This document shows positions 2,633-16,091 of a DNA stretch of 24,000 nucleotides, in pieces. The DNA comes from Actinomycetota bacterium. GTDB taxonomy: Bacteria; Actinomycetota; UBA4738; CALAEC01. The notes under the pieces are model-generated. The model made no database searches. It was not told the DNA's origin and was given only the letters and a program-made list of their open reading frames with translations. The DNA lies in contig DASZZY010000126.1 in the NCBI GenBank assembly GCA_036260395.1, forward strand, positions 16,235-40,234. The letters run 5' to 3'. Position numbers and translations under genes: made by a program. Every line of letters begins with the position of its first letter. Positions within the stretch are counted from its first letter, which is position 1.

Positions 2633-2642
2633 GCCGGCAACC

Positions 2643-3551
2643 TCATCGAAGCGTCGGATCCAGCACGTCTCGGAGGCCGTCGCCGAGCAGATTGAAGCCG
2701 AGGGCGACCACGGCGATGGCGATCCCCGGATAGATCATGAGCTGCGGGGCGCTGGCGAGGTAGCGCTGCCCCTCCGACAACATGGCGCCCCATTCCGGCG
2801 TTGGCGGTCGTACGCCGAGGCCGAGGAACGAGAGGGCAGCCAGGATGAGCAGGAGCTGGCCCGTGCGGAGGGTCGCCACCGCCAGGATGGGGCCGACGAC
2901 GTTGGGGAGGATGTGGCGCGTGGCGATCCGTCGTCCTGACAGCCCCAGCGCCCTGGCGCCCTCCACGAAGTCCCGCTCCCTCATGGCGAGCACGAGCCCC
3001 CGCACGAGGCGCGCGTAGCTCAACCAGTAGACGCCGATCATGGCGATGGCGAGGTTCAGCAAGCCCGGCCCGAGCACACCAGTGACCACCAGCGCGAGCA
3101 GCAGGGGCGGGAACGCCAGTAGAAGATCGACGATCCGCATGATGAGGCCATCGAGGATGCCTCCCACGTACCCGGAAAGCGTTCCCACCACGATGCCGAT
3201 CGTGAGGACCCCCGCACCGATCGCCAGGGTCGTGAGGACCGAAGTCCTCGCTCCCAACACCATCCGCGAGAACTCGTCGCGCCCGAGGTTGTCCGTCCCC
3301 AGCCAATGCTCAGCGCTCGGCGGAGCGTACCGGTTCATCACGTTCTGCCGGGCAGGGTCGTGCGGGGCGATCCAGGGCGCCAACAGGGCCACGAGCACCG
3401 CCAGCGTGACGATCACCAACCCGGCCAGCGCCGTGGGGTCCGCGACGAGTCGGCGGAGGAGGACGCCACGGGCCGGAAGCACGATCGACCGAGGCTCTGG
3501 CGCGGCCGGGTCGATCTGGAACGAGCGCCCCTCCGAGACATCGACGCTCAC
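2643..3551 (-). CDS. ABC transporter permease (DppC/OppC/NikC-like)
   Basis: 302 aa and multi-pass hydrophobic, with an EAA-type loop (FVEGARALGLSGRRIATRHILPN). The GTG start at 3549-3551 overlaps the upstream permease stop at 3548-3550 (GTGA). Confidence 0.9.
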   Translation of the reverse strand: MSVDVSEGRSFQIDPAAPEPRSIVLPARGVLLRRLVADPTALAGLVIVTLAVLVALLAPWIAPHDPARQNVMNRYAPPSAEHWLGTDNLGRDEFSRMVLGARTSVLTTLAIGAGVLTIGIVVGTLSGYVGGILDGLIMRIVDLLLAFPPLLLALVVTGVLGPGLLNLAIAMIGVYWLSYARLVRGLVLAMRERDFVEGARALGLSGRRIATRHILPNVVGPILAVATLRTGQLLLILAALSFLGLGVRPPTPEWGAMLSEGQRYLASAPQLMIYPGIAIAVVALGFNLLGDGLRDVLDPTLR

Positions 3552-4498
3552 CGAACCCCCCTACCCTGAGCCAACGCGACACGCGGATCCAGCCACAGAT
3601 AGACCAGGTCGACCACCAAGCTCACGAGGACGAACACCGTTCCGGAGAAGACCACGAAGCCCTGGAGCATGGTGTAGTCGCGCTGCCCGATGGCCTCGAC
3701 CGCGAGGCGCCCGATGCCCGGCCAGACGAAGATGATCTCGATCACCGCGGAATAGGCCAGCAGGATGGCGAATACCATGCCGACCTCCGTCACGACCGCC
3801 CCCAGAGAGTTCCGGAGGGCGTGGCGGATGACCACGCGCCTTTCCGGAACACCCTTCGCCCGGGCGGTCATGATGTAGTCCTCCCCGAGGACCTCGAGGA
3901 GGCTCGACCGCATCAGCCGGGCGACGACGGCGGCCTCGCCGAGCGCCAGCGCCAGCGCCGGGAGGACCAGATGCTGCAGTCCGTCGCGGCCGAGTGCGGG
4001 CAACCACTGCAGCTCGACTGAGAACACGATGATGAGCAGGAGGGCGAGCCAGAAGGCCGGGACGGAGGCCCCCAACAGTGCGGCGACGCGGAGGAGGTGA
4101 TCGAGGAGACTGTTCCGCCGGATCGCCGCCACAACACCGAGCGGAATGGCGATCACGAGCGTGATCAGCGTGGCGGCCGTGGCCAGCTGAAGCGTCGCCG
4201 GAAACCTCGACACGAGCTCGTCCGTCACCTCGCGGCCGGAGTAGTAGGACGTGCCGAGATCCCCGCGGACGGCCCCCCCGAGCCAGTCGAGGTACTGGAT
4301 CGGGAGCGGGCGGTCGAGCCCGAGCCGGGCGCGGGTCGATGCGAGCTCGGCCTGGTTGGGCTGTCGGTCGTGCACCCGAACGAAGTAGCTGTGTGCGGCG
4401 TCGCCGGGCGCCAGGCGCACGAGGAAGAACGCGAGCAGCGTGATCCCGATCCACGTGGGGATCAGGTACGCCACCCGGCGAGCGATGTACGCGACCAC
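3548..4498 (-). CDS. ABC transporter permease (DppB/OppB/NikB-like)
   Basis: 316 aa. The N-terminus MVAYIARRVAYLIPTWIGITLLAF is typical of this family, and it has an EAA loop (YIMTARAKGVPERRVVIRHALRN). GTG start at 4496-4498. Confidence 0.9.
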   Translation of the reverse strand: MVAYIARRVAYLIPTWIGITLLAFFLVRLAPGDAAHSYFVRVHDRQPNQAELASTRARLGLDRPLPIQYLDWLGGAVRGDLGTSYYSGREVTDELVSRFPATLQLATAATLITLVIAIPLGVVAAIRRNSLLDHLLRVAALLGASVPAFWLALLLIIVFSVELQWLPALGRDGLQHLVLPALALALGEAAVVARLMRSSLLEVLGEDYIMTARAKGVPERRVVIRHALRNSLGAVVTEVGMVFAILLAYSAVIEIIFVWPGIGRLAVEAIGQRDYTMLQGFVVFSGTVFVLVSLVVDLVYLWLDPRVALAQGRGVR

Positions 4499-4587
4499 GA
4501 CCTGGGCCCGGGGTCACCCCCTCGTCGCGCGACGATCGTCCGTGCCATCGCCGGCACGACCGACGACCGGACCGGAGCGTGCCCCGG

Positions 4588-6189
4588 TCACTCGGCGATG
4601 TACACCGTGTCGTATCGGTTGTGGAGTCCCGACGGCGCCGCCTCGAACCCCTCGACGTTCTGGTCGAGGACGTTCACGGTCACCACCCCGGCCAGCGGAA
4701 TCACGATCGCCTCTTGATCGATCAGGATGTGCAGCGCCTCCGCCGTAAGCTCCTTGAGCTCCTCTTCGTCCGGGGTCGCCACCGCCCGGGCGATCACCTC
4801 GTCGAACCGTCCTTTCGGGGCGAAGACCGGCTGGTACCCGATGTTGCCGAACAGGCCGATCGACCAGAACAGGAGGGCCGGGAGGAAGGCAGGGTTGGCG
4901 TCGTTCTGGCTCCCCTGCTCCAGCCACAGATCGCCGGCGAAGCGGTCGAGTCGAGCCTCGTAGGATGCCGTGTCCGGCGTCCTGATGATCTCGACATCGA
5001 TCCCCACCCGGCGTAGCTGGTCCTGGAGGAACTCCGGAACCGCCCCGTGCTCCTCAGCTGAGGGGAAGCCGGCAATCAGCTCGAGGCGCAACGGCTCCCC
5101 GCCCTTCTGCCTGATGCCGTCCGGCCCTGGCATCCAACCAGCTTCCTCGAGGAGGGCCTCGGCCTGCGCCGGGTCGTGCTCGTACCCCTCGATCCGACCG
5201 GCTGCCTCACCGAGCAAACGCGACGGCACCATGGTTTGCTCCCTGGCCGCGTATCCCTCGAACACGCCCTCCACGAGGGCCTCGCGGTCGATGGCGTACC
5301 CGATGGCGTGCCTCACGCGCTCGTCGGTGAGGATGGTGTAGCCAGATCTGCCGCTCTTGTTGAGGTAGATGGCCTCGTACGCGCCCGGCTCGCCGACCTC
5401 CACGGTGAACCCTCGGGCCTCCAGCTCCCCAACGGCATCGGGGGGGATGTCCAGCGCCATGTCCACCTCACGAGCCTCGAGCGCCAGTCGCCTTCCGTTG
5501 TCGTTGGGGATGAACCTGAATGTGATCCTTCGGAGGGTGGGAAGCTCGCCCCAGTAGTCGTCGTTCCGCGCGACCACGATCTCTTCCTGCGGTCGGTAGC
5601 TCACGAACTTGAAGGGCCCTGTCCCGACCGGATCGTCGTTGGGCTCCGTTCCCGGGGCCACGATGAAATAGTTCGGGTGCACCAGCTGCTGAGGGAGGCG
5701 CCGGTTCTCGAACATGGGGGTCACCTCGATCGTGTAGTCATCGATGATCTCGGTGGAGTCCTCACCGAGACCAGGGGTCCCCCCTCCGCCTTCGGCCACG
5801 AGGTTGAACGTGTGCTTCACCGCCTCCGCGTCGAACCGCTGCCCATCGTGGAACCGCACTCCCCTGCGCAGTTCGAACCGCCAGGTGTTCGGAGGCAGGA
5901 ACTCCCACGATGTGGCCAGGCTCGGCAGCACGTTGTACTGCGCATCCATCCGGACGAGCCCCTCGAAGATGTTGATGTTCAGCGGGTACAGCCCGATGGT
6001 TCCTTGATCGCTCCCCCCTCCGGACGTGTACCGGTCCGCGCCCGCTCCCACCACGTGCTCTTGCTCCTCGGGCGGCGCAGGCTGCGTGCCGCCGCGCCCG
6101 TCGGGTTGTCCTCGCATGCATGAGGCGACGAACACCAACAGCAGGCTGAGCGTGGTGATACCCGTTCGCAGCGTGTGGGACGTCCTCAC
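4588..6189 (-). CDS. ABC transporter substrate-binding lipoprotein, family 5 (DppA/OppA/NikA class)
   Basis: 533 aa. It has a signal peptide with a lipobox (LLLVFVASC). Its length and layout match family-5 binding proteins. GAGGAGGAGG lies 9 nt upstream of the GTG start at 6187-6189. The gene order (SBP, B, C, D, F) matches dpp/nik operons. Confidence 0.85.
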   Translation of the reverse strand: MRTSHTLRTGITTLSLLLVFVASCMRGQPDGRGGTQPAPPEEQEHVVGAGADRYTSGGGSDQGTIGLYPLNINIFEGLVRMDAQYNVLPSLATSWEFLPPNTWRFELRRGVRFHDGQRFDAEAVKHTFNLVAEGGGGTPGLGEDSTEIIDDYTIEVTPMFENRRLPQQLVHPNYFIVAPGTEPNDDPVGTGPFKFVSYRPQEEIVVARNDDYWGELPTLRRITFRFIPNDNGRRLALEAREVDMALDIPPDAVGELEARGFTVEVGEPGAYEAIYLNKSGRSGYTILTDERVRHAIGYAIDREALVEGVFEGYAAREQTMVPSRLLGEAAGRIEGYEHDPAQAEALLEEAGWMPGPDGIRQKGGEPLRLELIAGFPSAEEHGAVPEFLQDQLRRVGIDVEIIRTPDTASYEARLDRFAGDLWLEQGSQNDANPAFLPALLFWSIGLFGNIGYQPVFAPKGRFDEVIARAVATPDEEELKELTAEALHILIDQEAIVIPLAGVVTVNVLDQNVEGFEAAPSGLHNRYDTVYIAE

Positions 6190-6472
6190 GAGTGAAAACC
6201 TCCTCCTCGCCCCGGTACGCCGGTCGAGCCGATCGGTGTGCGGCGACCACGAGCGAAGGGAGGTGCCGGTGGCCGCCGATCCCCGTCCACGCTAGCCACC
6301 GCCGGTAATCGGAACAATTGGTGTGTTCGGCACATGACGTCGGTGGTACAACGGGTGAGCTTCGCATATAGCGTGCTGCTGACCCGTCGTGGCCACGTGT
6401 TCCCGGCGCTGGCTGCGCTGGAGGCGGGTTGTCGTACGCTAGGTGAGGCCCAGCCGTAGGAGGAGACGCACG
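6190..6472. promoter_or_regulatory. Divergent intergenic region between the binding-protein gene and the Cys-rich micro-ORF; probable bidirectional promoter/operator region
   Basis: This is the longest non-coding gap in the window (283 nt). It contains the window's most AT-rich patch (about 6306-6375). An imperfect inverted repeat CGGAACA-N7-TGTTCGG lies at 6310-6330 around a CAATTG core. A TATAGC -10-like hexamer lies at 6367-6372. No transcription start data are available. Confidence 0.3.
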
Positions 6473-6619
6473 ATGGCCACCGAACTTGGGATGATCGGCT
6501 GCGATTGCGGCTGCGACTGCTGCCAGCCGGGGCCGGCGAACGAGGCCGAGGAGCGCGAGCTGCTGCTGCACCAGAAGCGGCTGATCGACCAGCGGCTCGC
6601 GCAGCTGCAGGGGAACTGA
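6473..6619 (+). CDS. Unannotated 48-aa Cys-rich small protein (MATELGMIGCDCGCDCCQPGPANEAEERELLLHQKRLIDQRLAQLQGN)
   Basis: It is below the ORF-track size cut-off. The ATG is preceded by GGAGGAG with 7-nt spacing. 45 of 48 sense codons end in G or C, matching the genome's coding bias. Five Cys fall within 8 residues (codons at 6500-6523), followed by a heptad-like helical tail. It sits 47 nt upstream of the M50 protease gene. Confidence 0.6.
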   Translation: MATELGMIGCDCGCDCCQPGPANEAEERELLLHQKRLIDQRLAQLQGN

Positions 6620-6666
6620 CGGCCGCCCCGGATGCGCCCGGGGAGGGAGGATCTCCGCGGGCCGCC

Positions 6667-7365
6667 GTGGAGCGCCCGAGGGGGCGCACGCTGCCGTCGC
6701 TGCGGTTCCGGCTGGCGGGGATCCCCGTCAGCGTCGACCTGCTGTTCTTCGTCACCGCGCTGTTCCTCGGGACCTCCGCGGGGCGGGACGGCGCCTCGCT
6801 CCTCGTCTGGGTCGCGGTGGTGCTGACGTCCGTCCTGTGGCACGAGCTGGGGCACGCCCTCGCGCTCCGGGCGTTCGGGTACGCGCCGGTCGTCGAGCTG
6901 TGGGCCTTCGGCGGACTCACCTACCGCGCGTCCGGGAGCAGGACGCCGGCGGGCAGGTTCCTGGTCGTCACGCTCGCCGGCCCGGGGGCCGGGCTGATCC
7001 TCGGGGGGACCGTTCTGCTCTGGCTGCGCACGGCCGCGCCGCTCGACCTCGGTCCGCTTGCGGAAGCGGCCATCGTGGACGTCCTGTGGGTCAACATCGG
7101 CTGGGCGATCCTCAACATGATCCCGATCCTGCCGCTGGACGGCGGGAACGCCCTGGCGTCGTTCCTGGACCTTGTCACGCGCGGCCGGGGGATGCTCCCC
7201 GCCCGGGTGGTCTCCGTCCTTCTGGCGGGGGCCGGCGTAGTGGCCGCGGTCCTGGCCCGCGAGTGGTGGCTGGCGCTGCTGGCGGGGTTCTTCCTGCTGA
7301 CGAACGCCTCGGCGCTCCGCCGTCCGCGCCGTCCGGCGGCGCGCGCCGCGCCCGAGGAGCGCTAG
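6667..7365 (+). CDS. M50-family (site-2-protease type) membrane zinc metalloprotease
   Basis: HELGH motif (VLWHELGHALALRAFG) plus a second motif NMIPILPLDGG, in a polytopic hydrophobic protein. The track start at 6505 is a TTG inside the micro-ORF. The GTG at 6667 is the only in-frame start after the micro-ORF stop, but its Shine-Dalgarno sequence (GGAGG at 6646-6650) is 16 nt away, so the start is uncertain. Confidence 0.8.
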   Translation: MERPRGRTLPSLRFRLAGIPVSVDLLFFVTALFLGTSAGRDGASLLVWVAVVLTSVLWHELGHALALRAFGYAPVVELWAFGGLTYRASGSRTPAGRFLVVTLAGPGAGLILGGTVLLWLRTAAPLDLGPLAEAAIVDVLWVNIGWAILNMIPILPLDGGNALASFLDLVTRGRGMLPARVVSVLLAGAGVVAAVLAREWWLALLAGFFLLTNASALRRPRRPAARAAPEER

Positions 7366-8807
7366 CAGATCCGGGGGAGCGGGTCGCCGATCAGCATGTC
7401 GACGATCCGGGTGCCGCCGAACTCCGTCTTGAGGAGGACCAGCGTGGGCGGGTCGTCCTTGACCCGGCCGATCACCGCCGCGCCCTCGCCGAGCGGGTGC
7501 GAGCGCATCGCCTCGAGCGCCGCCTCCGCCCGAGCGCCATCGACGATGGCCACCAGCCGCCCCTCGCACGCCACGTAGAGCGGGTCGATCCCCAGGATCT
7601 CGCTCGCGCCGCGGACCTCGTCGCGCACCGGGATGGCGGACTCCTCGACGACCAAGGCCACGTTCGCCACCTGGGCCACCTCGTTGAGGATCGTGGCCAC
7701 CCCTCCGCGGGTCGCGTCGCGGAGGCACCGCACGCCGTCGGGGACCGCGTCGAGGAGCCGGCTCACCAGCCCGGCGAGCGGCGCGGTGTCCGACTCGACG
7801 TCGGCCTCGATGTCGAGCTCCCCCCGGGCCAGCATGATCGTGACGCCGTGGTCGCCGATCGGCCCGGAGACCAGCACGGCGTCGCCCGGGCGGACCTGTG
7901 CGGCGCCCAGCGTGACCGGCCGCTCGAGGACGCCGACCCCCGTGGTGTTCACGTACACGCCGTCGGCCTTCCCGCGGTTCACGACCTTGGTGTCCCCGGT
8001 CACGACCTGGACGCCGGCCCGTTCCGCCGCAGCGGCCATCGACCCCACGATCCGGCGCAGGTCCTCCACCGGGAATCCCTCCTCGAGGATGAACCCCGCC
8101 GAGAGGTACAGCGGCCGGGCGCCGGAGACCGCCAGGTCGTTCACGGTGCCGTTGACCGCCAGGTCGCCGATGTCGCCACCGGGGAAGAACAGCGGCGAGA
8201 CCACGAACGAGTCCGTGGTGAACGCCAGGCGCGCTCCGTCAACCGAGAACACGGCCTGGTCCTCGAGCGGCTCGAGGAGCGGGTTCCGGAAGTGCTCCAG
8301 GAACAGCGCCTCGACCAGCGTGTGGGTCGCCTTGCCGCCCGAGCCGTGCGCCAGCGTGATCCGCTCGTCTTTGATCCGGGCCTTCCGCCGGCGGGCCCGG
8401 TCGATCCGATCCAGCACCTGCTCCTCCCGGGACAGCACCCGTTCGCCGAGGGGGTACTGGGCCAGCTCCGGATCGTCGGCGTGCTCGCGCACCAGTCGCT
8501 CCACCCACTCCGCGGTCCGCCCCTCCGGGTCGGGGGCGGCGTCGCGGGCCCTGGCCCCTGGAGCCGTGGGGGGCTCGGGCGCCTCGATCTCGGCCTCGTC
8601 GGGGGCCGGCGGCGCCTCCGGCGCGTCGATGTCCCCGCGGTCCGGGGCCGGCGGCGCCTCCGGGGCCTCGGTGTCCGGCGTCGACGGCGCGGGGGGGGCC
8701 GGCGGCGCCTCGGTGTCCGGCGTCGACGGCGCGGTGGGCGCCTCGGGGAGCTCCTCGACGTCCGGAGCGCGGGGCGCCTCGGGGGCCTGGACCTCGCGCT
8801 CGGTCAT
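7362..8807 (-). CDS. hypE: Hydrogenase maturation carbamoyl dehydratase HypE with an N-terminal extension of about 146 aa
   Basis: From LAHGSGGKATH (residue 152) to the C-terminal PRIC it is colinear with canonical HypE. The ATG at 8805-8807 forms an ATGA overlap with the hypD stop, and GC3 stays high through the extension. An alternative internal start is the GTG at 8415-8417, with GGAGG 5 nt upstream. The 793-aa track ORF runs on spuriously into hypD. Confidence 0.9.
   Translation of the reverse strand: MTEREVQAPEAPRAPDVEELPEAPTAPSTPDTEAPPAPPAPSTPDTEAPEAPPAPDRGDIDAPEAPPAPDEAEIEAPEPPTAPGARARDAAPDPEGRTAEWVERLVREHADDPELAQYPLGERVLSREEQVLDRIDRARRRKARIKDERITLAHGSGGKATHTLVEALFLEHFRNPLLEPLEDQAVFSVDGARLAFTTDSFVVSPLFFPGGDIGDLAVNGTVNDLAVSGARPLYLSAGFILEEGFPVEDLRRIVGSMAAAAERAGVQVVTGDTKVVNRGKADGVYVNTTGVGVLERPVTLGAAQVRPGDAVLVSGPIGDHGVTIMLARGELDIEADVESDTAPLAGLVSRLLDAVPDGVRCLRDATRGGVATILNEVAQVANVALVVEESAIPVRDEVRGASEILGIDPLYVACEGRLVAIVDGARAEAALEAMRSHPLGEGAAVIGRVKDDPPTLVLLKTEFGGTRIVDMLIGDPLPRIC
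8604..8734 (-). repeat. In-frame tandem repeats encoding the Pro/Glu/Ala-rich part of the HypE extension
   Basis: A 27-nt exact repeat (cctcggtgtccggcgtcgacggcgcgg) occurs at 8666-8692 and 8708-8734, a 42-nt period. The 15-mer ggccggcggcgcctc occurs at 8604, 8646 and 8697. At protein level these read APSTPDTEAPPAPP / APSTPDTEAPEAPP plus further EAP/PAP units. Confidence 0.85.
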
Positions 8808-9928
8808 GCCCGGGTCGCCTCCCGCACGCGCTCCCGGGTGAACCGGCCGAAGTTGTAGTAGGCCGCGCAGGCGCCCTCCGAGGACACCATGCACGTCCCG
8901 ATCGGCGTCTCCGGCGTGCACGCCGTGCCGAACACCTTGCACTCCCACGGCTTGATGACGCCCTTCAGCACCTCGCCGCACTGGCAGGCCTTCGGGTCCG
9001 CCACGCGGACACCCGGCACATCGAACAGCACCTCGGCGTCGTGCGCCGCGAAGGTCTCCCGGACCTTGAGCGCCGAATGCGAGATGAACCCCAGCCCCCG
9101 CCACTCGAAGTACGGCCGGAGCTCCATGGTCTCGTTGATGGCCTCCAGCGCCCGCCGGTTCCCGTCCCAGGGGACCACGCGGGTGTACTGGTTCTCGACC
9201 TCGGCCCGCCCCTCGTCGAGCTGCTTCAGGATCATCCAGATCGACTGGAGGATGTCGAGGGGCTCGAACCCCGCCACCACCAGCGGCTTGTCGTAGTCGC
9301 GAGCGATGAACTCGTAGGGCCGGCAACCGATCACCGTGGACACGTGTCCCGGCCCGATGAACCCGTCCAGTCGCATGTCGGGCGAGTCCAGGATGGCCTT
9401 GATCGCCGGGATGATCGTCACGTGGTTGCAGAACACCGAGAAGTTGCGGATGCCCTCGGCGGCAGCTCGGAGCAGCGTGACCGCCGTCGACGGCGCCGTG
9501 GTCTCGAACCCGATGGCCATGAAGACGACCTTCCGGTCGGGGTTCTGCCGGGCGACCTTCACCGCGTCGAGCGGCGAGTACACCATCCGGATGTCGGCGC
9601 CCTGGGCCTTCGAGTCGAAGAACGACCCATGCCCGCCGGGGACGCGCATCATGTCGCCGAACGAGGTCATGATCACGTCCGGCTGCTCGGCGATGAAGAT
9701 CGCGTCGTCGACCCGGCCCATCGGGATCACACAGACGGGACACCCGGGCCCGTGGATCAAGGTCACGTTCTCCGGCAGGTAGTCCTCGAGCCCATGCTTG
9801 TAGATCGTGTGGGTGTGCCCGCCGCAGACCTCCATGATCTTGATGGGCCGGTTGGCGGCCAGCTCGGCGATCTCCCGGGCCACCCTCCGGGCGACCTTCT
9901 CATCGCGGTACTCGTCGACGAACCTCAT
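8804..9928 (-). CDS. hypD: Hydrogenase maturation Fe-S protein HypD
   Basis: 374 aa with all HypD hallmarks: VCGGHTHTI, GPGCPVCV, GFETTAPS, CQCGEVLKG and CTPETPIGTCMVSSEGACAAYY. The ATG at 9926-9928 overlaps the upstream stop (ATGA). Confidence 0.95.
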   Translation of the reverse strand: MRFVDEYRDEKVARRVAREIAELAANRPIKIMEVCGGHTHTIYKHGLEDYLPENVTLIHGPGCPVCVIPMGRVDDAIFIAEQPDVIMTSFGDMMRVPGGHGSFFDSKAQGADIRMVYSPLDAVKVARQNPDRKVVFMAIGFETTAPSTAVTLLRAAAEGIRNFSVFCNHVTIIPAIKAILDSPDMRLDGFIGPGHVSTVIGCRPYEFIARDYDKPLVVAGFEPLDILQSIWMILKQLDEGRAEVENQYTRVVPWDGNRRALEAINETMELRPYFEWRGLGFISHSALKVRETFAAHDAEVLFDVPGVRVADPKACQCGEVLKGVIKPWECKVFGTACTPETPIGTCMVSSEGACAAYYNFGRFTRERVREATRA

Positions 9929-10605
9929 GCCGTGGCTCCCATCTCCTCGAGCGCGACGTGGCTCAGCTCCCACAGGACGTGGTACACGGTGGTCTGGGCT
10001 TCCTGGATCCGGTGCACCGAGGAGGACGGCACGACGAAGAGGTGGTCGATCGTGTCGATCTCGGCCATCTTGCCGCCCTCGTATCCGGCCAGCCCGACCG
10101 TCAGCATCCCGCGCCGGGAGGCCTCCTCGAACGCCCGCACGAGGTTCTCGGAGTTCCCGCTGGTGGACAGGCCGACCGCGATGTCGCCGGCGCGACCCAG
10201 CGCCGCCAGCTGGCGGGCGAACACCACCTCGAACCCGATGTCGTTGGCCAGCGCCGTCACGACGGCGACGTCGGAGGTGAGCGACAGGGCCGGGAGCGGC
10301 CGCCGGCCGTCCCCCGGATGGGCGAACATCGCCGCCAGGTCGTGGGCGTCGGTGCTCGAGCCGCCGTTCCCGAACCCGAACAGCCGGGCCCCCGAGGCGA
10401 ACGCCCCGGCCATCTCCTCGGCGCACCGAGCCAGCCGCTCGCCGTCGCGCCGGAGGCACTCGTCGCGGAGCGCCACGACCTCGGCCGCCTTCTCCTCGGT
10501 GGACCGGCGGATGTGGTCCATGACCGCGTCGACGTTACGCTCCCCCGCGTAGAGGAACGGGTAGAGCGCCTCGACGCCCCCGGCGACGTTCTCGTCCCCC
10601 GACAT
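9925..10605 (-). CDS. GmhA-like SIS-domain protein, paralog 1 (motif-intact)
   Basis: 226 aa with GFGNGGSSTDAHD, LSTSGNSENL, LAGYEGGKMA and RIQEAQTTVYHVLWEL, colinear with phosphoheptose-isomerase-type SIS proteins. Its start ATG (10603-10605) shares one base with the hypC stop (TGATG). Confidence 0.8.
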   Translation of the reverse strand: MSGDENVAGGVEALYPFLYAGERNVDAVMDHIRRSTEEKAAEVVALRDECLRRDGERLARCAEEMAGAFASGARLFGFGNGGSSTDAHDLAAMFAHPGDGRRPLPALSLTSDVAVVTALANDIGFEVVFARQLAALGRAGDIAVGLSTSGNSENLVRAFEEASRRGMLTVGLAGYEGGKMAEIDTIDHLFVVPSSSVHRIQEAQTTVYHVLWELSHVALEEMGATA

Positions 10606-10832
10606 CAGCCCTGCACCACCGCGATCGCCTCCTTGGCGTGGACCAGGATCGTGTCGCCGACCCTGGCCTCGACCAGGGCCACGCTGACCTCCTCCTCGCT
10701 GACCCCGGTGTCCACGCGGGCCAGGCCGTCCCCGAGCAGCTCCATCACCGTGACCGCCACCGCCTCGTCGGAGCAGGTGATGCACACGTCGTCGTGGCAC
10801 TCGGGGACCTGGCGCGTGGGGGCCGGCCCCAC
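10605..10832 (-). CDS. hypC: HypC/HupF-family hydrogenase maturation chaperone, CxxC-type N-terminus
   Basis: ..ECHDDVCITCSDEAVAVTVMELLGDG..VSVALVEARVGDTILVHAKEAIAVV matches the HypC OB-fold core. I prefer the GTG at 10830-10832 (GGGAG 6 nt upstream, 17 nt after the preceding stop). The alternative GTG at 10785-10787 would give a canonical Met-Cys N-terminus. The track start at 10913 overlaps the upstream gene. Confidence 0.8.
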   Translation of the reverse strand: MGPAPTRQVPECHDDVCITCSDEAVAVTVMELLGDGLARVDTGVSEEEVSVALVEARVGDTILVHAKEAIAVVQG

Positions 10833-10849
10833 GGGGATCTCCCGGGCGC

Positions 10850-11470
10850 TCAGCGGATCACCTCCGGCTCCAGCACGCCTGGCTGCTCGAACAGGACGTG
10901 CACCAGCTCCCACAGCACGTGATACACGGTGACCTGGACCTCCTTGACCACCCGGGGGTCGTCGGAGGCCACCTCCAACACGTGGTCGGCACCGCTCCCC
11001 GCCACCTCTCCCCCGTCACCTCCGGTGAGGGCCACGGTGAGCAGGCCGAGCTCGCGCGCCGCCGCCAGGCCCCGAACCACGCTGGGGTCGCGGCCGTCGC
11101 CGGAGACTCCGAGCGCGATGTCGTCGGGGCCGGCGAGCTGACGGAGCTGGTGAGCGAAGATCTCCTCGAACCCCTCGCGCCCGGCCACCCCGGTCACCGT
11201 CGCGATGTCGTTGGTCAGGGAGATGGCCGGCAGGGCCCGCTTCCCGACGATCACCGGGTGGACGAACTCCACCGAGACGTGTTGCGCGTCGGTGCTGGGC
11301 GCGCCGGTCCCGAACACGAACAGCCGCCCTCCCCGGTGGAACCGCACGGCCATCTCGTAGCAGGCTCGGGCCACCCGGTCGGCGTCGGTGGCCACGGCCC
11401 GGCCGGGTTCCCTTCGCCGGGCGAAGGCCTCCTGGACCGCGGATGCCAGCCGGTCCGAGACCCGCCTCAT
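10850..11470 (-). CDS. GmhA-like SIS-domain protein, paralog 2 (degenerate motifs)
   Basis: 206 aa with the same architecture and the same C-terminal TVYHVLWELVHV block as paralog 1. GNGGS is replaced by GTGAPS, and STSGNS by VSGDGRD. ATG at 11468-11470; an alternative GTG is at 11498-11500. The 447-aa track ORF is a spurious upstream extension through def. Confidence 0.75.
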   Translation of the reverse strand: MRRVSDRLASAVQEAFARRREPGRAVATDADRVARACYEMAVRFHRGGRLFVFGTGAPSTDAQHVSVEFVHPVIVGKRALPAISLTNDIATVTGVAGREGFEEIFAHQLRQLAGPDDIALGVSGDGRDPSVVRGLAAARELGLLTVALTGGDGGEVAGSGADHVLEVASDDPRVVKEVQVTVYHVLWELVHVLFEQPGVLEPEVIR

Positions 11471-11523
11471 GGGGTGATGGTGGTCGAGCGCGCCACACAC
11501 ATAGATGTGGAACCACTCTACCC

Positions 11524-12024
11524 CTAGCGGTAGACCTTGCGGGCGAACAGGTCGGACGGGGCGGCCACCCGATCGAGGATCAGGAGCCCGTCGAGGTGAT
11601 CGACCTCGTGGAGGGCGGCGCGGGCCTCGAAGCCCTGCATCCGGTACACGCGGACCGACCCGTCGGGGACGAGCCCGCGGAGCGCGACGCGGCGGGGACG
11701 GCGGACGTTGGCGGTCAGGTCGGGCACCGAGAGGCAACCCTCCCGAAGCACGTCCGGGTCGCCGGCCTCGAGGATCTCGGGGTCGAACAGCGACACGAGG
11801 CCGTGCGCGGTGTCCGCCCGCCGGTGCCCGCGGACGTCGAGGACGAACGCCCGCACCGGCTCGCCGACCTGCGGGGCGGCCAGCCCCACGGTGGCCGGCA
11901 TGGCCCGCATCGTGTCGACCAGGTCGGCGCTCAGCCGGCGCAGATCCTCCGTGACCTCGCCGACCGGCTCGGCGACGCGCTTCAGCACCGGATCGGGGTA
12001 TCGGACCACCGGCCGGACCGCCAC
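11524..12024 (-). CDS. def: Peptide deformylase
   Basis: 166 aa with the three PDF motifs: GLAAPQVG, EGCLSVP and HEVDHLDG. GTG start at 12022-12024, 6 nt after the ACT-protein stop. Confidence 0.9.
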   Translation of the reverse strand: MAVRPVVRYPDPVLKRVAEPVGEVTEDLRRLSADLVDTMRAMPATVGLAAPQVGEPVRAFVLDVRGHRRADTAHGLVSLFDPEILEAGDPDVLREGCLSVPDLTANVRRPRRVALRGLVPDGSVRVYRMQGFEARAALHEVDHLDGLLILDRVAAPSDLFARKVYR

Positions 12025-12030
12025 CGGCCG

Positions 12031-12555
12031 TCAGAGGGTCTCGACCTCGACGGGCTCCAGCCGCGCGTCGACGCCGAGGTCCCGGGCCGCGGACAGCACC
12101 GCCCCGTGCAGGTCCTCGGCGGGAACCGACTCGGGGACCGCCACCTCGGCGATGATCGCGTAGATCGGCTCGGGCCCCGCCGTCCGCCGGCACGAGAGGT
12201 CGGTGATGTTCACCCCCCGCTCGGAGAACAGCCCGGCGAGCGTGGCCACGATCCCGGGGCGGTCCGAGCCGTAGGCGGTCAGGACGTGGGTGGCCCGGGG
12301 CCGTTCCGGGGCGCCGGCCTCGACGTCGGCCACGTGGACCCGGACCCCCACGTCGGCCGCCGCCCGCTCCAGCGAGGCCCGGACCTCGTCAGGGTCCCCG
12401 GGCGCGTCGACGACGAGCATCATCGCGAAGTGGCCACGCAGGATCGTCGACGAGACGTCCTCGAGGTTGCCGCCCAGGTCCTGGAGCGCGCCGGTCAGCG
12501 CGGCCACGATCCCCGGCCGGTCCGCGCCGATGGCGGTCACCGCGTAATGCGCCAC
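12031..12555 (-). CDS. Tandem ACT-domain protein (GcvR-like / ACT regulatory protein)
   Basis: 174 aa with two copies of the ACT signature (G.DRPGIVAALTGAL.. and GSDRPGIVATLAGLF..). GTG start with no obvious Shine-Dalgarno sequence. Confidence 0.7.
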   Translation of the reverse strand: MAHYAVTAIGADRPGIVAALTGALQDLGGNLEDVSSTILRGHFAMMLVVDAPGDPDEVRASLERAAADVGVRVHVADVEAGAPERPRATHVLTAYGSDRPGIVATLAGLFSERGVNITDLSCRRTAGPEPIYAIIAEVAVPESVPAEDLHGAVLSAARDLGVDARLEPVEVETL

Positions 12556-12594
12556 GCCGAGAGGATACGGCCCCGGGCGCCGCCGGTTCCGGCG

Positions 12595-12891
12595 CTAGGA
12601 GATGCCCGCCGCCGGACCGGCCCCGTCGTCGAAGAGCGAGAGCTGGACGGGGGCCTCCGGCGCCTCGTCGCCGTTGCGCTCGGCACGGGCGGCGTCCGGG
12701 CCCCACACCGCCTCGAGCAGCGTGGCCGGCGCGTCGAGGTTCGGCTCGGGACGGGGGCCTCCCCAGAGCGCGTCGACGTGCTCGGCGAGGCGGCCGACGG
12801 GATCGTCCCCCCGGCGCTCGGCGGCCGGCGCCCCCCGCCACACCGCTTCGGTGATGGACGGGTCCCATCTCGCGGATGCCGTCTCGCTCAT
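12595..12891 (-). CDS. Small acidic hypothetical protein (98 aa) with internal repeat and C-terminal QLSLF motif
   Basis: The ATG at 12889-12891 is preceded by GGGAGGAGG (5-nt spacing), and GC3 is about 90 percent. There is an internal duplication (ITEAVWRGAPAAERRGDDP / LLEAVWGPDAARAERNGDEAP). QLSLF is encoded at 12631-12645. The longer 211-aa track ORF overlaps gltX and is not supported. Confidence 0.6.
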   Translation of the reverse strand: MSETASARWDPSITEAVWRGAPAAERRGDDPVGRLAEHVDALWGGPRPEPNLDAPATLLEAVWGPDAARAERNGDEAPEAPVQLSLFDDGAGPAAGIS

Positions 12892-12985
12892 GGCCTCCTC
12901 CCTGCGACGCGTCGAACGCCGATTCTCGCGCGTTCCGGCCGCCGTGGGAAGGGGGAGCAGGTGAAGAGACCGTGACGTTCGGTCG

Positions 12986-14407
12986 TCAGCCGGACGACGC
13001 CCGCAGCCGTGCCAGGGTCCGGTCGCGGCCCAGGAGCGCCATCGACTCGAACAGCGGCGGCGACACGGTGGAGCCGGTGACGGCCGCCCGGACCGGCTGG
13101 AACGCCTTCCGCCCCGAGAGGCCGGAGGCCTCCTGGAGCTCCCGCATGGCGGCGGTGATCGATGCCACCGTCCACTCCGGGAGGGCCTCCAGGCGCCCGA
13201 CGACCTCCAGAAGGTACTCGGCCTGCCCATCGAGGAGCTTGCGCGCCTTGTCGTCCGCCTCGACGTCCTCGAAGAGGAACCGCACGAGCGACGCCGCCTC
13301 GTTCGTCGTGCGGCTCCGCTCCTGGACCAGCGGGGCCGCCGCGGCCACCCGGTCGGGCTCCGGCTCGATCCCAGCCCGCCGGAGCGCCTCTTCCAGCAGC
13401 TCCGCGAACCGATCCGCGGGCGCCTCGCGGATGTAGTGGCCGTTCATCCAGTCGAGCTTCTCGCGGTCGAACGCGGCGGGGTTCCGCGACACCCGCGCCA
13501 GGTCGAACGACTCGATCAGCTGCTCCCGGCCGAAGAACGTGGTGTGGTCGTCGTACGACCATCCGAGCAGCGCGAGGTAGTTCACCATGGCCTCCGGCAG
13601 GTACCCCTGCTCGCGGAACCACTCCACGGACACCGAGCCGTGGCGCTTGGAGAGCGGCTGGCGATCGTGGCCCACGATCAGCGGGAGGTGCCCGTACGCC
13701 GGCGGTTGCTCCACGCCGAGCGCTTCCAGCAGCAGCAGCTGGCGCGGCGTGGACGAGAACAGGTCCTCGCCGCGGATGACGTGGGTCATCCGCATCTTCC
13801 AGTCGTCGACGGCGGCGGCCAGCAGGTACGTGGGGAACCCGTTGCTCCGGAGGATCACGAAGTCCTCGATGTCGGACGCCGGGAACGTGGCCTCGCCGCG
13901 GACGAGGTCGTGCACGGTCACGTCGCGCCCGGGGGTGGCGAAGCGCCACGCGAACGAGCGGCCCTCGGCCTCGCGGGCCTTCCGCTGCTCCTCCGACAGC
14001 CCCCGGCATCGCTGGTCGTAGCGGGGAGGCTCCCCGCGGGCCAGCGCCTGGCGGCGGCGCTCCTCCAGCTCCTCGGGGGTGCAATAACACCGGTACGCGC
14101 GCTCGTCGCCTGCGAGCCGCTCGACCGTGTCGCGGTACAGCGACAGCCGCTCGGTCTGGCGGTACGGGCCGTACGAGCCGCCCACGCCGGGGCCCTCGTC
14201 CCAGTCGATCCCCAGCCAGCGGAGCGACTCCTGGATCGCCTGCACCGAGTCCTCCGTCGATCGGGTCCGGTCGGTGTCCTCGATCCGGAGCACGAACGTC
14301 CCGCCGTGGCGGCGGGCGAAGAGCCAGTCGTACAGCGCGGTCCGGGCGCCGCCCACGTGGAGGTAGCCCGTCGGCGCCGGCGCGTACCGGACGCGGACCT
14401 CATCCAC
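12986..14407 (-). CDS. gltX: Glutamyl-tRNA synthetase
   Basis: Class-I signatures are present: [16 protein letters not shown] (HIGH-type) and PLSKRHG (KMSKS-type). The remainder is colinear with GltX. The track start at 14437 is a TTG. I prefer the GTG at 14405-14407 ([14 protein letters not shown]), which overlaps the upstream stop by 8 nt. Confidence 0.9.
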
Positions 14408-15161
14408 CCTCGACCACCCCGTTCTCGAGCACGCCAACGCCCTCGACCTCGACCTCGACGGTGTCTCCGGCCTTCAGCGGGCCGACCCCGGCCGGCGTGC
14501 CGGTGAGGACCACGTCGCCGGGAAGAAGCGTGATGGTGCGGGAGATGAACGCCACCAGCGCGGCCGCGGAGAACAGGAAGTCCGAGGTCCGCCCGGACTG
14601 GCGGGTCTCGCCGTTGACCCGAGCCTCGACGCCGACGTCGGCCGGGTCCAGCTCGGTATCGATCCACGGGCCGAGCGGGCAGAACCCGTCCGACCCCTTG
14701 GCCCGCGCCCACTGGCCGTCCTGCTTCTGCCACTCGCGGGCCGTGACGTCGTTGGCGCAGGTGTACCCGAGGACGTACCGCAGCGCGTCGGCCTCGTCGA
14801 CCCTCCGGCACAGCCGACCCATCACCACCGCGAGCTCGGCCTCGTGGTCCACGCGGCCGGCGCCGGGCGGGAGGGGGATGGGGTCCCCGGGCCCGATCAC
14901 CGAGGTGGCTGGCTTGAAGAACAGGATCGGCGACTCCGGCACCGGGTTCCCGAGCTCCGCCGCGTGCCCGGGGTTGTTCCGGGCGACGGCCACGATCTTC
15001 GAGGGGATCACCGGCGCCAGGAGCCTGACGTCGTCGGCCGGGACCTCCTCACCGGTGGGGATGGGTTCCTCGAAGAACGTCCCCCGCAGCGCCCGGATCG
15101 TGGGGCCCTCGCGGACGCCGGTGGCGATGCGGTCGCCGTGCCGGAAGCGGACCAGCCTCAC
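14400..15161 (-). CDS. Fumarylacetoacetate hydrolase (FAH) family protein
   Basis: 253 aa with typical FAH-fold blocks: [40 protein letters not shown] and [16 protein letters not shown] start 3 nt after the ilvE stop. Confidence 0.85.
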
Positions 15162-15164
15162 GCG

Positions 15165-16091
15165 CTACTCGACGTACTCGACCCAGGGCTCGTACCGGTC
15201 GATGTCGCCCTTGACCGCCGCGAAGAACGTCTGCTGGATCTCCTTGGTGATCGGGCCGCGCCCGTTCGAGGCCAGGACCCGGCCGTCGATCTCGCGGATC
15301 GGCGTCACCTCCGCGGCGGTCCCGGTGAGGAACGCCTCGTCCGCGGTGTACAGGTCGGCACGGAGCAGCTTGCGCTCCACGACCTCGTAGCCCATGTCGC
15401 GGGCGATCGTCATCGCGGCGTCGCGGTTGACCCCCAGCAGGATCCCCGCCGACTCCGGCGGCGTCACGAGGACGCCGTCGCGGACGATGAACAGGTTCTC
15501 GCCGGTGCCCTCCGCCACGTCGCCGTCCGAGGACAGCATGATGGCGTCGTCGTAGCCGGCCTTGATGGCCTCCACCTTCGCCAGCCCGGAGTTGATGTAC
15601 TGGCCGGTGGCCTTGGCCTGGGCCGGGAGGACGTTGGCGTCGGGGCGCCGCCACGACGAGATGAGCAGCCGGGCGCCGTTCTCCAGGCAGTCGTCGCCGA
15701 GGTAGGTCCCCCACGGCCACACCCCGATGGCCACGTTGACCGGGGCGTACAGCGGGTTGAGCCCCATCTCGCCGTAGCCGTGATAGACGATCGGGCGGAC
15801 GTAGCACGCCTTCAGGCCGCTGGCCCGCACGGTGTCCTTGGCGGCCTCGACGAGCTCGTCAAGCGAGTACGGGATCTCGATCATGTAGACGGCCGCGGAC
15901 CGGAACAGCCGCCGGATGTGGTCGGTGAGCCGGAAGATGCCCGGGAGCCCCCTCGACGTCTCGTAGGCCCGGATGCCCTCGAACACGCCGCTGCCGTAGT
16001 GCAGCGCGTGGGTCAGCACGTGGACCTTGGCGTCCTCCCACGGGACGAGCTTCCCGTCCATCCAGATCTTCTCGACAGGCTGAATCGGCAT
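15165..16091 (-). CDS. ilvE: Branched-chain amino acid aminotransferase (fold type IV)
   Basis: 308 aa: MPIQPVEKIWMDGKLVPWEDAKVHVLTHALHYGSGVFEGIRAY.., and later EGTGENLF and GILLGVNRD. The ATG at 16089-16091 has AAGGAGG 7 nt upstream. The track ORF start at 16166 is a spurious extension. Confidence 0.9.
   Translation of the reverse strand: MPIQPVEKIWMDGKLVPWEDAKVHVLTHALHYGSGVFEGIRAYETSRGLPGIFRLTDHIRRLFRSAAVYMIEIPYSLDELVEAAKDTVRASGLKACYVRPIVYHGYGEMGLNPLYAPVNVAIGVWPWGTYLGDDCLENGARLLISSWRRPDANVLPAQAKATGQYINSGLAKVEAIKAGYDDAIMLSSDGDVAEGTGENLFIVRDGVLVTPPESAGILLGVNRDAAMTIARDMGYEVVERKLLRADLYTADEAFLTGTAAEVTPIREIDGRVLASNGRGPITKEIQQTFFAAVKGDIDRYEPWVEYVE

Follow-up and report, generated by a model that had tools for sequence, protein, structure and literature searches.

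The window, a stretch of 24,000 nt from an Actinomycetota bacterium, contains two genes encoding proteins of the SIS family, SIS-1 and SIS-2, which, judging from their sequences, very probably function together, as a heteromer whose active site they share. Taking all of the evidence together, it is likely that the two proteins and the HypC-like protein encoded between them form a heteromeric, GmhA-like accessory module of [NiFe]-hydrogenase maturation. The genes are on the minus strand in the order SIS-2 (10850..11470; 206 aa), the HypC-like OB-fold gene hereafter called HypC* (10605..10832), SIS-1 (9925..10605; 226 aa), hypD (8804..9928) and hypE (7362..8807). The extent of the SIS pair, 9925-11470, is exactly that given in a preliminary description of this DNA. 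The identity of hypD is supported by matches to Pfam HypD (527.5 bits) and TIGR00075 (519.8 bits), and that of hypE by its AIRS and AIRS_C domains. The HypE protein ends in PRIC and carries an N-terminal extension of ∼149 residues rich in Pro, Ala and Glu.

Most of these genes overlap their neighbours. The SIS-1 ATG shares 1 nt with the stop codon of HypC* (TGATG), the hypD ATG overlaps the SIS-1 stop (ATGA) and the hypE ATG overlaps that of hypD. SIS-2 and HypC* do not overlap, being separated by 17 nt if HypC* starts at GTG 10832, the likelier start, or by 62 nt if it starts at GTG 10787. The proposed translational coupling of the SIS genes to hypC and hypD thus has overlapping codons behind it for SIS-1, but not for SIS-2. 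A scan of positions 7200-12700 for promoters and terminators returned one weak match of each kind, each within a gene. The SIS pair sits between def and hypD. The peptide deformylase gene 5′ of SIS-2 was considered as a component of the module and rejected as a chance neighbour, being kept in 0 of 80 related loci.

Both proteins belong to Pfam SIS_2, the flavodoxin-like fold of about 190-200 residues that GmhA has; their scores were 60.5 and 54.5 bits, the cut-off being 27. An alignment of SIS-1 with SIS-2 spans 171 residues at 47% identity (E = 2e-46), far above chance, and both have the C-terminal block TVYHVLWEL.HV, in agreement with their description as proteins of SIS layout with a near-identical block at the C-terminus. 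Their best family matches were GmhA models, and GmhA structures in the PDB were matched with E = 5e-33 (SIS-1) and 7e-24 (SIS-2). With the two NCBIfam GmhA models (TIGR00441 and NF010546), whose cut-offs are 276 and 209 in one order or the other, SIS-1 scored 136.2 where the cut-off is 276 and 131.7 where it is 209, and SIS-2 scored 97.3 and 101. We did not use these cut-offs as a discriminator: the organism's own canonical gmhA also scored below (171 versus 209). Scores against the DiaA model were 98 and 70, the cut-off being 352. Near its N-terminus, SIS-1 carries a LYPFLY motif (10549-10566) that 72 of 81 orthologs have without change; disorder is predicted for the segment around it.

To locate the active-site residues, we aligned both proteins to Burkholderia pseudomallei GmhA using HMMER. 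Structures of GmhA include those of B. pseudomallei (2X3Y, 2XBL and 5LU5), Neisseria gonorrhoeae (5I01) and Escherichia coli (2I22). The zinc ligands of GmhA come from two subunits, one monomer supplying His, Glu and His and its neighbour the Gln (PMC5387315, PMC4697000), the Glu being on helix α2, the His on α6 and the Gln on α6′ (PMC4697000). GmhA residues H64/E68/Q175/H183 correspond to D89/M93/Q201/H209 in SIS-1 and to H64/E68/K176/H184 in SIS-2. SIS-1 thus has the zinc-ligand Gln201, within RIQE (10000-10011), His209 and both sugar-phosphate loops, GNGGS (residues 79-83; 10357-10371) and STSGNS (residues 147-152; 10150-10167), and has lost the His and the Glu. SIS-2 has three of the four zinc ligands (His64, Glu68 and His184) and Asp61; Lys176 replaces the Gln, and the phosphate loops, intact in SIS-1, are altered relative to GNGGS and S-T-S-G-x-S, reading GTGAP (residues 54-58; 11297-11311) and VSGDGRD (residues 122-128; 11087-11107). 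The earlier motif assignments for both paralogs are borne out, and the alignment confirms the by-eye observation that the His and Glu survive only in SIS-2 and the Gln only in SIS-1. The four zinc and catalytic residues of GmhA were not found together in one polypeptide; SIS-1 and SIS-2 hold them jointly. By this measure, neither paralog is intact alone. The characterization of the pair as one motif-intact and one degenerate protein therefore fails for SIS-1, which is without His and Glu, and the label degenerate misleads for SIS-2, as shown below.

Because GmhA draws its zinc ligands from two adjacent subunits in the manner described above, a complete site would occur only at a SIS-1:SIS-2 interface. 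Of the two sites per interface, one is predicted to be complete, with SIS-2 as the metal/catalytic half and SIS-1 as the phosphate-pocket half; the reciprocal site is by the same reasoning dead or remodelled. A docked model of GmhA places sedoheptulose 7-phosphate (S7P) in contact with N53, G55, S121-S126 and Q173 from one monomer and with E66 from its partner (PMC7705670). The sites of GmhA are paired, an Asp61-water-Asp61 bridge is present and reactivity is half-site (PMC5705639). From the docked model, this bridge and the conservation pattern described next, we infer that the phosphate pocket facing the complete metal site is that of the Gln-donating subunit.

To evaluate how consistently the residues are divided, we compared the proteins from about 80 related loci (81 SIS-1 and 80 SIS-2 sequences). 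Among the SIS-1 relatives, GNGGS, STSGxS and the Gln were present in 81/81 and the His at the His183 position in 80/81; none had His at the His64 position or Glu at the Glu68 position. Among the SIS-2 relatives, Asp61, both His, the Glu and the Lys were each present in 80/80. The SIS-2 loops have the consensus GNGG[PA] and S-x-D-G-x-C in these relatives, the conserved Cys position being occupied by Asp in the window. The conservation of the retained Asp, His, Glu and His, and of the replacement residues Lys, Asp and Cys, shows that SIS-2 has not decayed. Overall, even at about 40% identity the residues of the complete site are all preserved in trans, and those of the reciprocal site drift. His209 of SIS-1, expected in the dead site, is nonetheless conserved (80/81). 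A second interface site comprising this residue and the conserved Lys, Asp and Cys of SIS-2 may, on sequence grounds, have a function of its own outside our model.

The same conserved SIS-2 Asp, Cys and Lys could also signify that SIS-2 functions independently. If so, SIS-1 and SIS-2 would each form homo-oligomers, SIS-1 as a sugar-phosphate-binding sensor and SIS-2 as a metal-binding protein, with no joint site. Each protein has a complete SIS fold, and GmhA-like homotetramers are possible. However, the zinc site would want a fourth ligand in either homomer, SIS-2 occurs together with SIS-1 in all 79 loci with upstream DNA (the eightieth contig ends short of that position), and the two halves are repeatedly fused, in several orders and lineages. 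We consider independent homo-oligomers very improbable.

The fusions include SIS2-SIS1 proteins on independent contigs, encoded beside hypF, hydrogenase subunits and NifU or beside hypE-hypD-hypC, as well as a HypC-SIS1 protein (P0077), SIS2-HypC-SIS1 triple fusions, a SIS2-HypC protein in Mycobacterium intracellulare and SIS2-SIS1 proteins in Thermus and Sulfobacillus. According to representatives of clusters at 50% identity, the N-domains of the fusions retain D-H-E and H and have variable phosphate loops, and the C-domains retain N, S, STSS, Q and H and have lost the His and Glu. An AlphaFold2 model of one natural fusion had a pLDDT of 82 and a pTM of 0.80. In Foldseek searches with a fused relative, each domain showed the GmhA fold, with TM-scores of 0.85-0.91 to GmhA chains; DiaA was also among the structure matches. 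Phylogenetically, SIS-2 groups with the fusion N-domains in a single clade (SH-aLRT 99), canonical GmhA makes up a separate clade (SH-aLRT 100) and fused and split forms interleave. The complementary pattern, invariant in 80 loci, matching the architecture of the GmhA site and accompanied by fusions, strongly supports the earlier suggestion of a hetero-oligomer with composite sites.

Unsplit relatives occur in the group-1h hydrogenase clusters of Proteobacteria. H16_RS31885 on pHG1 of Cupriavidus necator H16 and OCA5_RS17420 on pHCG3 of Afipia carboxidovorans, both annotated as SIS domain-containing protein, have the full residue set N, S, D, H, E, STSS, Q and H. They are 43-44% identical to SIS-1, are placed between hypC and hypD or hypE, and share a HIAVEF..HP block with SIS-2; the Cupriavidus protein has an N-terminal LYPFLH in place of LYPFLY. 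In contrast to the pair, each is a single gene with a complete set, so presumably a homo-oligomer, and the hypC next to it has the canonical form, beginning MCLGIPGQ.

The HypC-like gene of the window differs from this canonical form. It matched Pfam HupF_HypC with 34.5 bits (cut-off, 28.5) and contains a C-x4-C-I-T-C-S-D motif, which is internal in the fusion proteins; the NCBIfam hypC model gave 18.7 bits against a cut-off of 48, and an NCBIfam profile search with the 75-aa form of the protein returned no match. GTG 10832 is preceded 6 nt upstream by GGGAG, and translation from GTG 10787 would yield a Met-Cys N-terminus. Since more than 80% of 76 loci share a Cys five residues further upstream, the protein appears to have an N-terminal extension. 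The combination of an N-terminal Met-Cys with a score above the NCBIfam subfamily cut-off was not found in it. A canonical hypC (81.8 bits) occurs elsewhere on the same contig, which also carries hydrogenase subunit genes and hypF. The gene flanked by the SIS pair, previously called hypC, therefore does carry a HupF_HypC domain but is a divergent paralog. The SIS2-HypC*-SIS1 triad was found in 75 of the 80 related loci.

Genome context provides a basis for assigning the pair a role in hydrogenase maturation, which we consider probable. Genes encoding Hyp proteins (HypD, HypE or HypF) or hydrogenase subunits occur within 8 kb of the pair in 73 of 80 fetched loci, and the linkage recurs in 11 of 12 additional, more distant loci. 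Among 251 sampled genomes of the phylum, a [NiFe] large subunit is encoded in 36 of the 38 that carry the pair versus 133 overall; the assemblies of the two carriers without one consist of 190-230 contigs. In four of the 80 loci, no hyp genes are near the pair. We considered these as a break in the link and set this aside: all four genomes encode the large subunit elsewhere. At least six sampled genomes have similar large subunits and not the pair, indicating that the module is accessory rather than universal.

These data also bear on whether the pair is an ordinary S7P isomerase supplying heptose for the envelope or glycans and merely located in a hyp operon. The best family matches are, as noted, GmhA models, public annotation is often D-sedoheptulose 7-phosphate isomerase, and the putative composite site, holding all GmhA residues, may well accept S7P. 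Nevertheless, the pair is tied to hyp and hydrogenase genes across phyla, its carriers are nested within the hydrogenase-positive genomes, and a heptose-pathway context (hddA or hldE, gmhB, glycosyltransferases) was not found around it. Such a context surrounds the third, complete and canonical gmhA, which is on another contig between a GHMP kinase gene (best match, HddA) and a gene for a GmhB-like phosphatase, with a glycosyltransferase gene adjoining. The ordinary-isomerase explanation is accordingly the least probable of those considered, and the gene context supports the earlier view that the pair serves maturation, not heptose synthesis.

An association of ‘gmhA’ with the hydrogenase genes of group 1h/2a operons has been noted (PMC11879354, PMC5900883, PMC5445863). 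In the literature on ‘gmhA’ in hydrogenase clusters we found passing mentions and no functional study, and SIS proteins go unmentioned in a 2025 maturation review. Searching the genome for a HypX-like gene, we found only two formyltransferase-domain genes, which we tentatively take to be purN and fmt. The absence of HypX was considered as the reason for the module and discarded: C. necator has the SIS gene and HypX as well.

A role in maturation need not entail catalysis. DiaA has the GmhA fold and forms a tetramer, yet acts through DnaA binding (PMC4697000); with its catalysis lost, it is a precedent for the recruitment of a GmhA relative. By analogy, a SIS-1/SIS-2 oligomer might be a non-enzymatic scaffold organizing Hyp proteins (HypC*, HypD, HypE or the large subunit). 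DiaA's appearance among the structure matches, the repeated fusion of SIS halves to a HypC-like domain and the conserved LYPFLY peptide in its predicted disordered segment are consistent with such a scaffold. It nevertheless appears unlikely. The invariance in trans of a complete catalytic and phosphate-binding site while the reciprocal residues drift fits it less well, as a scaffold would not need these residues and DiaA itself, which is homomeric, lost the catalytic Glu. In the pair, the SIS-2 Glu is kept in 80/80, the set is complete in trans and the context is one of hyp genes; the unsplit proteobacterial form also retains the full GmhA residue set. On the residue pattern, retention of catalysis on a phosphosugar by the joint site is somewhat favoured, though no plausible chemical reason is known why the assembly of the [NiFe] cofactor should require a sugar-phosphate isomerase.

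The heteromeric module can be set beside characterized systems. SIS-1 and SIS-2 resemble GmhA (EC 5.3.1.28), the isomerase that converts S7P to glycero-manno-heptose-7-phosphate, in fold and length and jointly hold all of its site residues, and the GmhA site is itself already composite and half-of-sites. GmhA, however, is a homotetramer with four equivalent sites, whereas here the residues are divided over two paralogs; the pair has features of its own, namely the LYPFLY motif of SIS-1 and, in SIS-2, Lys, Asp and either Cys or Asp; and its genes lie among hyp and hydrogenase genes rather than with hddA and gmhB. In the GlmS isomerase domain, too, two duplicated and diverged SIS units cooperate in one asymmetric sugar-phosphate site, and the fused SIS relative superposes on it over about 400 columns with a TM-score of about 0.6. 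GlmS differs in its low sequence identity (8-14%), its SIS subclass and its chemistry, and it is always fused and has no hydrogenase link.

A course of events consistent with these data is as follows. The ancestor would have been a GmhA-like gene of a hydrogenase cluster, still single and complete in Proteobacteria (hypC-SIS-hypD). Duplication would have been followed by partition of the active sites that are paired across the dimer interface, SIS-1 keeping the sugar-phosphate pocket (GNGGS and STSGNS) and the zinc-ligand Gln, and SIS-2 keeping Asp-His-Glu and His, that is, the other three zinc ligands and the catalytic residues. The product would be an obligate hetero-oligomer, likely an α2β2 version of the GmhA tetramer, having at each SIS-1:SIS-2 interface a single complete site, zinc-dependent and of the aldose-ketose isomerase type, such that the half-of-sites behaviour of GmhA would have been made permanent. 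The pair would work with the Cys-rich HypC* as a maturation accessory of group-1h-type, oxygen-insensitive [NiFe]-hydrogenases, not in heptose biosynthesis. As a long shot, the composite site, tethered to HypC*, might perform an undescribed step of [NiFe]-cofactor assembly in air. In one version of such a step, a metal-held, open-chain phosphosugar would supply a ligand precursor to iron handled by HypC*. This precursor could be a source of the carbonyl ligand, whose origin is, to our knowledge, settled only for HypX. Another version would have the module delivering or protecting the iron handled by HypC*.

With group-1h-type hydrogenases, soil bacteria can subsist on hydrogen from the atmosphere, and the assembly of their cofactor in air is only partly known. 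A three-gene module of two putatively complementary isomerase halves and an unusual HypC-like protein is conserved in maturation operons of several phyla and is absent from current maturation schemes. The labels usually given to both genes, D-sedoheptulose 7-phosphate isomerase and SIS domain-containing protein, hide that each gene would encode half an enzyme. The series from unsplit to split to re-fused forms would be a clean natural case of a half-of-sites homo-oligomer frozen into an obligate heteromer. If the module does perform a step of [NiFe]-cofactor assembly, it would be a new maturation enzyme.

Every real gene between window positions 7362 and 12555 lies on the minus strand of this high-GC DNA (~72% G+C over the window). 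Transcription order begins with an ACT-domain gene and a peptide deformylase gene (12024-11524), the latter ending 53 nt before the gene for SIS-2 (11470-10850), one of two GmhA-like SIS paralogs. A divergent hypC paralog, here the HypC-like gene (10832 or 10787 to 10605), follows, then the genes for the second paralog, SIS-1 (10605-9925), hypD (9928-8804) and hypE (8807-7362). The spacer after SIS-2 is 17 nt if the HypC-like gene starts at GTG 10832 and 62 nt if it starts at GTG 10787. One base is common to the HypC-like stop codon and the SIS-1 ATG, and ATGA overlaps occur at both the SIS-1/hypD and hypD/hypE junctions. According to gene models and translations of the window, the coordinates and all motifs quoted in the preliminary description were correct. 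Because none of 80 fetched loci that carry a SIS-1 relative has a deformylase gene at the corresponding position, the adjacency of this gene to SIS-2 looks accidental. The predicted HypE has a Pro/Ala/Glu-rich repeat extension of ~149 residues ahead of the usual HypE core, and ends in the canonical PRIC.

SIS-1 and SIS-2 both have the SIS_2 fold, share 47% identity (E = 2e-46) and have GmhA as their best family and structure match. We used HMMER to align them to GmhA of Burkholderia pseudomallei and mapped the zinc-ligand positions His64, Glu68, Gln175 and His183. These positions are occupied by D89, M93, Q201 and H209 in SIS-1, and by H64, E68, K176 and H184 in SIS-2. The alignment thus bears out the by-eye reading that the His/Glu survive only in SIS-2 and the Gln only in SIS-1. 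The phosphate loops are GNGGS and STSGNS in SIS-1, with GTGAP and VSGDGRD at the equivalent places in SIS-2. Asp61, which connects the paired sites of GmhA (PMC5705639), is kept in both proteins.

A pattern scan across prokaryote species, each represented by one genome, identified at least 584 loci with a SIS-1 relative, including the 80 that were fetched. SIS-1 orthologs invariably possess GNGGS, S-T-S-G-x-S and the Gln (81/81 each), and 80 of 81 have His at the His183 position. The His64 position holds D, A, E or S and never His (0/81); the Glu68 position holds L, T, M, C or V and never Glu (0/81). All 80 SIS-2 orthologs have the His, the Glu, the Lys and the second His, and their phosphate loops follow the consensus GNGG[P/A] and S-x-D-G-x-C (Asp in 75/80, Cys in 73/80; SIS-2 of the window has Asp in place of this Cys). 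By this measure across 80 orthologs, SIS-2 is conserved and is not decaying, and SIS-1, lacking the His and Glu, is by the same alignment no intact GmhA either. The initial characterization of one paralog as motif-intact and the other as degenerate therefore misplaces the emphasis. SIS-1 also contains an LYPFLY peptide (residues 14-19; window 10549-10566) N-terminal to the SIS fold. It is exact in 72/81 orthologs, invariant in the fusions described below and, in the Cupriavidus protein, LYPFLH; AlphaFold modelling of a fusion places it in a low-confidence linker. This peptide may be a docking motif.

In the GmhA zinc site, described as identical to that of the B. pseudomallei enzyme, three ligands are contributed by one subunit and one by its neighbour (PMC5387315). 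In the Colwellia structure, the Glu is on helix α2, the His on α6 and the Gln on α6′ of the other subunit (PMC4697000). Given this division, SIS-2 retains exactly the three ligands of one subunit. SIS-1, as aligned, retains exactly the single ligand given by the neighbouring subunit, and neither protein could form a complete site as a homomer. In a docked model of the Mycobacterium tuberculosis enzyme, N53, G55, S121-S126 and Q173 are grouped and E66 comes from the other monomer (PMC7705670). Further, a single water connects Asp61 of one GmhA subunit with Asp61 of its partner (PMC5705639), so that this residue sits close to the two-fold axis; the GNGGS loop from one side would then face His64/Glu68 from the other subunit. 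The docked model, the Asp61 bridge and the conservation pattern point to SIS-1, the Gln donor, as the source of the phosphate pocket at the complete metal site. Under no other arrangement do the invariant residues all share a site, with nearly every variable residue in the other. Of each pair of adjacent GmhA sites, just one is active at any moment (PMC5705639), and SIS-1 and SIS-2 together look like a permanent form of this half-site asymmetry.

Homologs found by search include proteins of 344-390 aa in which a SIS-2-type domain precedes a SIS-1-type domain, each keeping its respective residues. Two such proteins are encoded on independent contigs from different samples: the first adjoins genes for HypF, hydrogenase subunits, NifU, DUF5947 and DUF6084, and the second adjoins hypE-hypD-hypC. 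Two SIS domains were found in ~58 of the best 150 SIS-2 relatives (50%-identity cluster representatives, counted with 7 added fusion proteins), with a uniform residue rule among these representatives. In the N-domain, D-H-E and H are invariant, the phosphate loops are variable and the Gln position holds Q, K or R; in the C-domain, N, S, STSS, Q and H are invariant and the His and Glu are lost. In six representatives the two SIS domains are separated by a HupF_HypC domain, one homolog (P0077) is a HypC-like-SIS-1 fusion, and a Mycobacterium intracellulare plasmid encodes a SIS-2-HypC-like fusion of 236 aa followed by SIS-1. Domain order in the fusions is always the gene order of the window. An AlphaFold2 model of one natural fusion, built from seven sequences only (pLDDT 82, pTM 0.80), fits two domains packed in a defined way. 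Foldseek matched each domain of the model to GmhA and the whole chain to the tandem-SIS isomerase domain of GlmS. Together, the residue partition, its conservation and the fusions strongly support, on comparative grounds, the proposal that SIS-1 and SIS-2 form a hetero-oligomer with composite sites. Two-domain fusions also occur in Thermus thermophilus and Sulfobacillus acidophilus, where the fused gene is directly followed by a small glutaredoxin-like gene (4617-4877 of fetched stretch L126 and 4634-4861 of L127, respectively) and then hypF. A glutaredoxin has been marked beside 'gmhA' in such clusters of Acidobacteria (PMC5900883).

The HypC-like protein has an extra Cys five residues ahead of the usual one, in the motif C-x4-C-[IV]-T-C-S-D. 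This Cys is conserved in >80% of 76 loci, which makes GTG 10832, with GGGAG 6 nt upstream, the probable start of translation in preference to the Met-Cys start. In natural fusions the motif is internal, as is C-T-D-D-V-C-V-T-C-S-D in the M. intracellulare protein. Judged from its sequence, the HypC-like protein, unlike canonical HypC, cannot employ a mechanism that uses a free N-terminal Cys.

SIS-2, the HypC-like gene and SIS-1 are collinear in 75 of the 80 related loci, and SIS-2 is present in all 79 where upstream DNA exists. Downstream of the triad are genes for the small and large hydrogenase subunits, hypD-hypE or hypF. Of 12 more distant examples fetched, 11 have hyp or hydrogenase genes around them; at four loci the pair is remote from hyp genes, and those genomes encode hydrogenases elsewhere. 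Within the phylum, 38 of 251 sampled genomes have a SIS-1-type gene; a [NiFe] large subunit is encoded in 36 of these 38, the two exceptions being fragmented assemblies, versus 133 of 251 overall. At least six sampled genomes have similar large subunits but lack the pair, and the module is therefore accessory.

The contig of the window also encodes [NiFe] small and large subunits, canonical HypC (81.8 bits) and HypF (5323-8687 and 11845-15312 of fetched stretch L006), 1-11 kb past the low end of the window. For the large subunit, the group-1h enzyme of Cupriavidus necator (5AA5) is the nearest match, yet the protein is divergent: it scores 479 bits to 5AA5, against 1070 bits for that of a Streptosporangium locus. 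Counted from its earliest potential start codon, the small-subunit ORF spans 481 aa, which is long. The subunit pair is 72% identical to one in another genome (stretch L101) that lies beside SIS2-SIS1 encoded as one open reading frame. A Dpp/Opp/Nik-type ABC importer, comprising a family-5 binding protein, two permeases and two ATPases, is encoded at window 951-6189 (minus strand), between the hyp genes and these hydrogenase genes; it is possibly a nickel importer. No protein of the 95%-complete assembly reached the family cut-off for HypA or HypB, and a third gene with a formyltransferase domain, which HypX would represent, was not found. Adjoining canonical hypC is a short ORF for a CbiA/MinD-type ATPase (L006 12126-12560) that might substitute for HypB.

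The genome carries a heptose cluster elsewhere. A third SIS_2 gene, with all GmhA residues, is a canonical gmhA and lies on another contig (C78; stretch L007, 1670-5014) between genes for a GHMP kinase (best match HddA) and a GmhB-like phosphatase, with a glycosyltransferase gene adjoining. This kinase/gmhA/phosphatase set corresponds to the pathway for heptose that M. tuberculosis is described as having (PMC7705670). This separate cluster, the linkage to hyp and hydrogenase genes, and the hydrogenase-positive carriers support, from gene context only, the suggested role of the pair in hydrogenase maturation.

On C. necator H16 pHG1, the order is hypF, hypC, SIS, hypD, hypE, hypA, hypB, beside a group-1h hydrogenase, and Afipia carboxidovorans pHCG3 has the same gene order. 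The single SIS protein of each plasmid (229-230 aa) has the complete residue set; that of Cupriavidus combines the LYPFL motif of SIS-1 with an HIAVEF block as in SIS-2. A tree of 111 domains groups SIS-2 with the N-domains in one clade (SH-aLRT 99) and sets canonical GmhA apart in another (SH-aLRT 100). Fused and split forms are intermixed, indicating repeated fusion or fission. In the simplest history, a hydrogenase-cluster GmhA-like homomer would have been duplicated, the two copies sub-functionalised, and many fusions or splits would have followed.

In several papers, clusters for group 1h and group 2a hydrogenases include a gene marked 'phosphoheptose isomerase' or 'gmhA' with no function assigned, among them the clusters of Frankia (PMC11879354), Acidobacteria and Streptomyces (PMC5900883), and M. 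smegmatis (MSMEG_2706; PMC5445863). A network study recorded an association of HypD/HypE with GmhA, unexplained there (PMC3231954), and a neighbourhood survey listed 'SIS domain' (PMC12727194). Hydrogenase-cluster SIS proteins go unmentioned in a 2025 review of [NiFe]-cofactor assembly, and we found no description of the two-paralog complementarity in the literature. The HMMER alignment and ortholog counts confirm the original observation of two diverged GmhA-like paralogs with complementary residues. The SIS-1/SIS-2 module is widespread, mis-annotated and unstudied.
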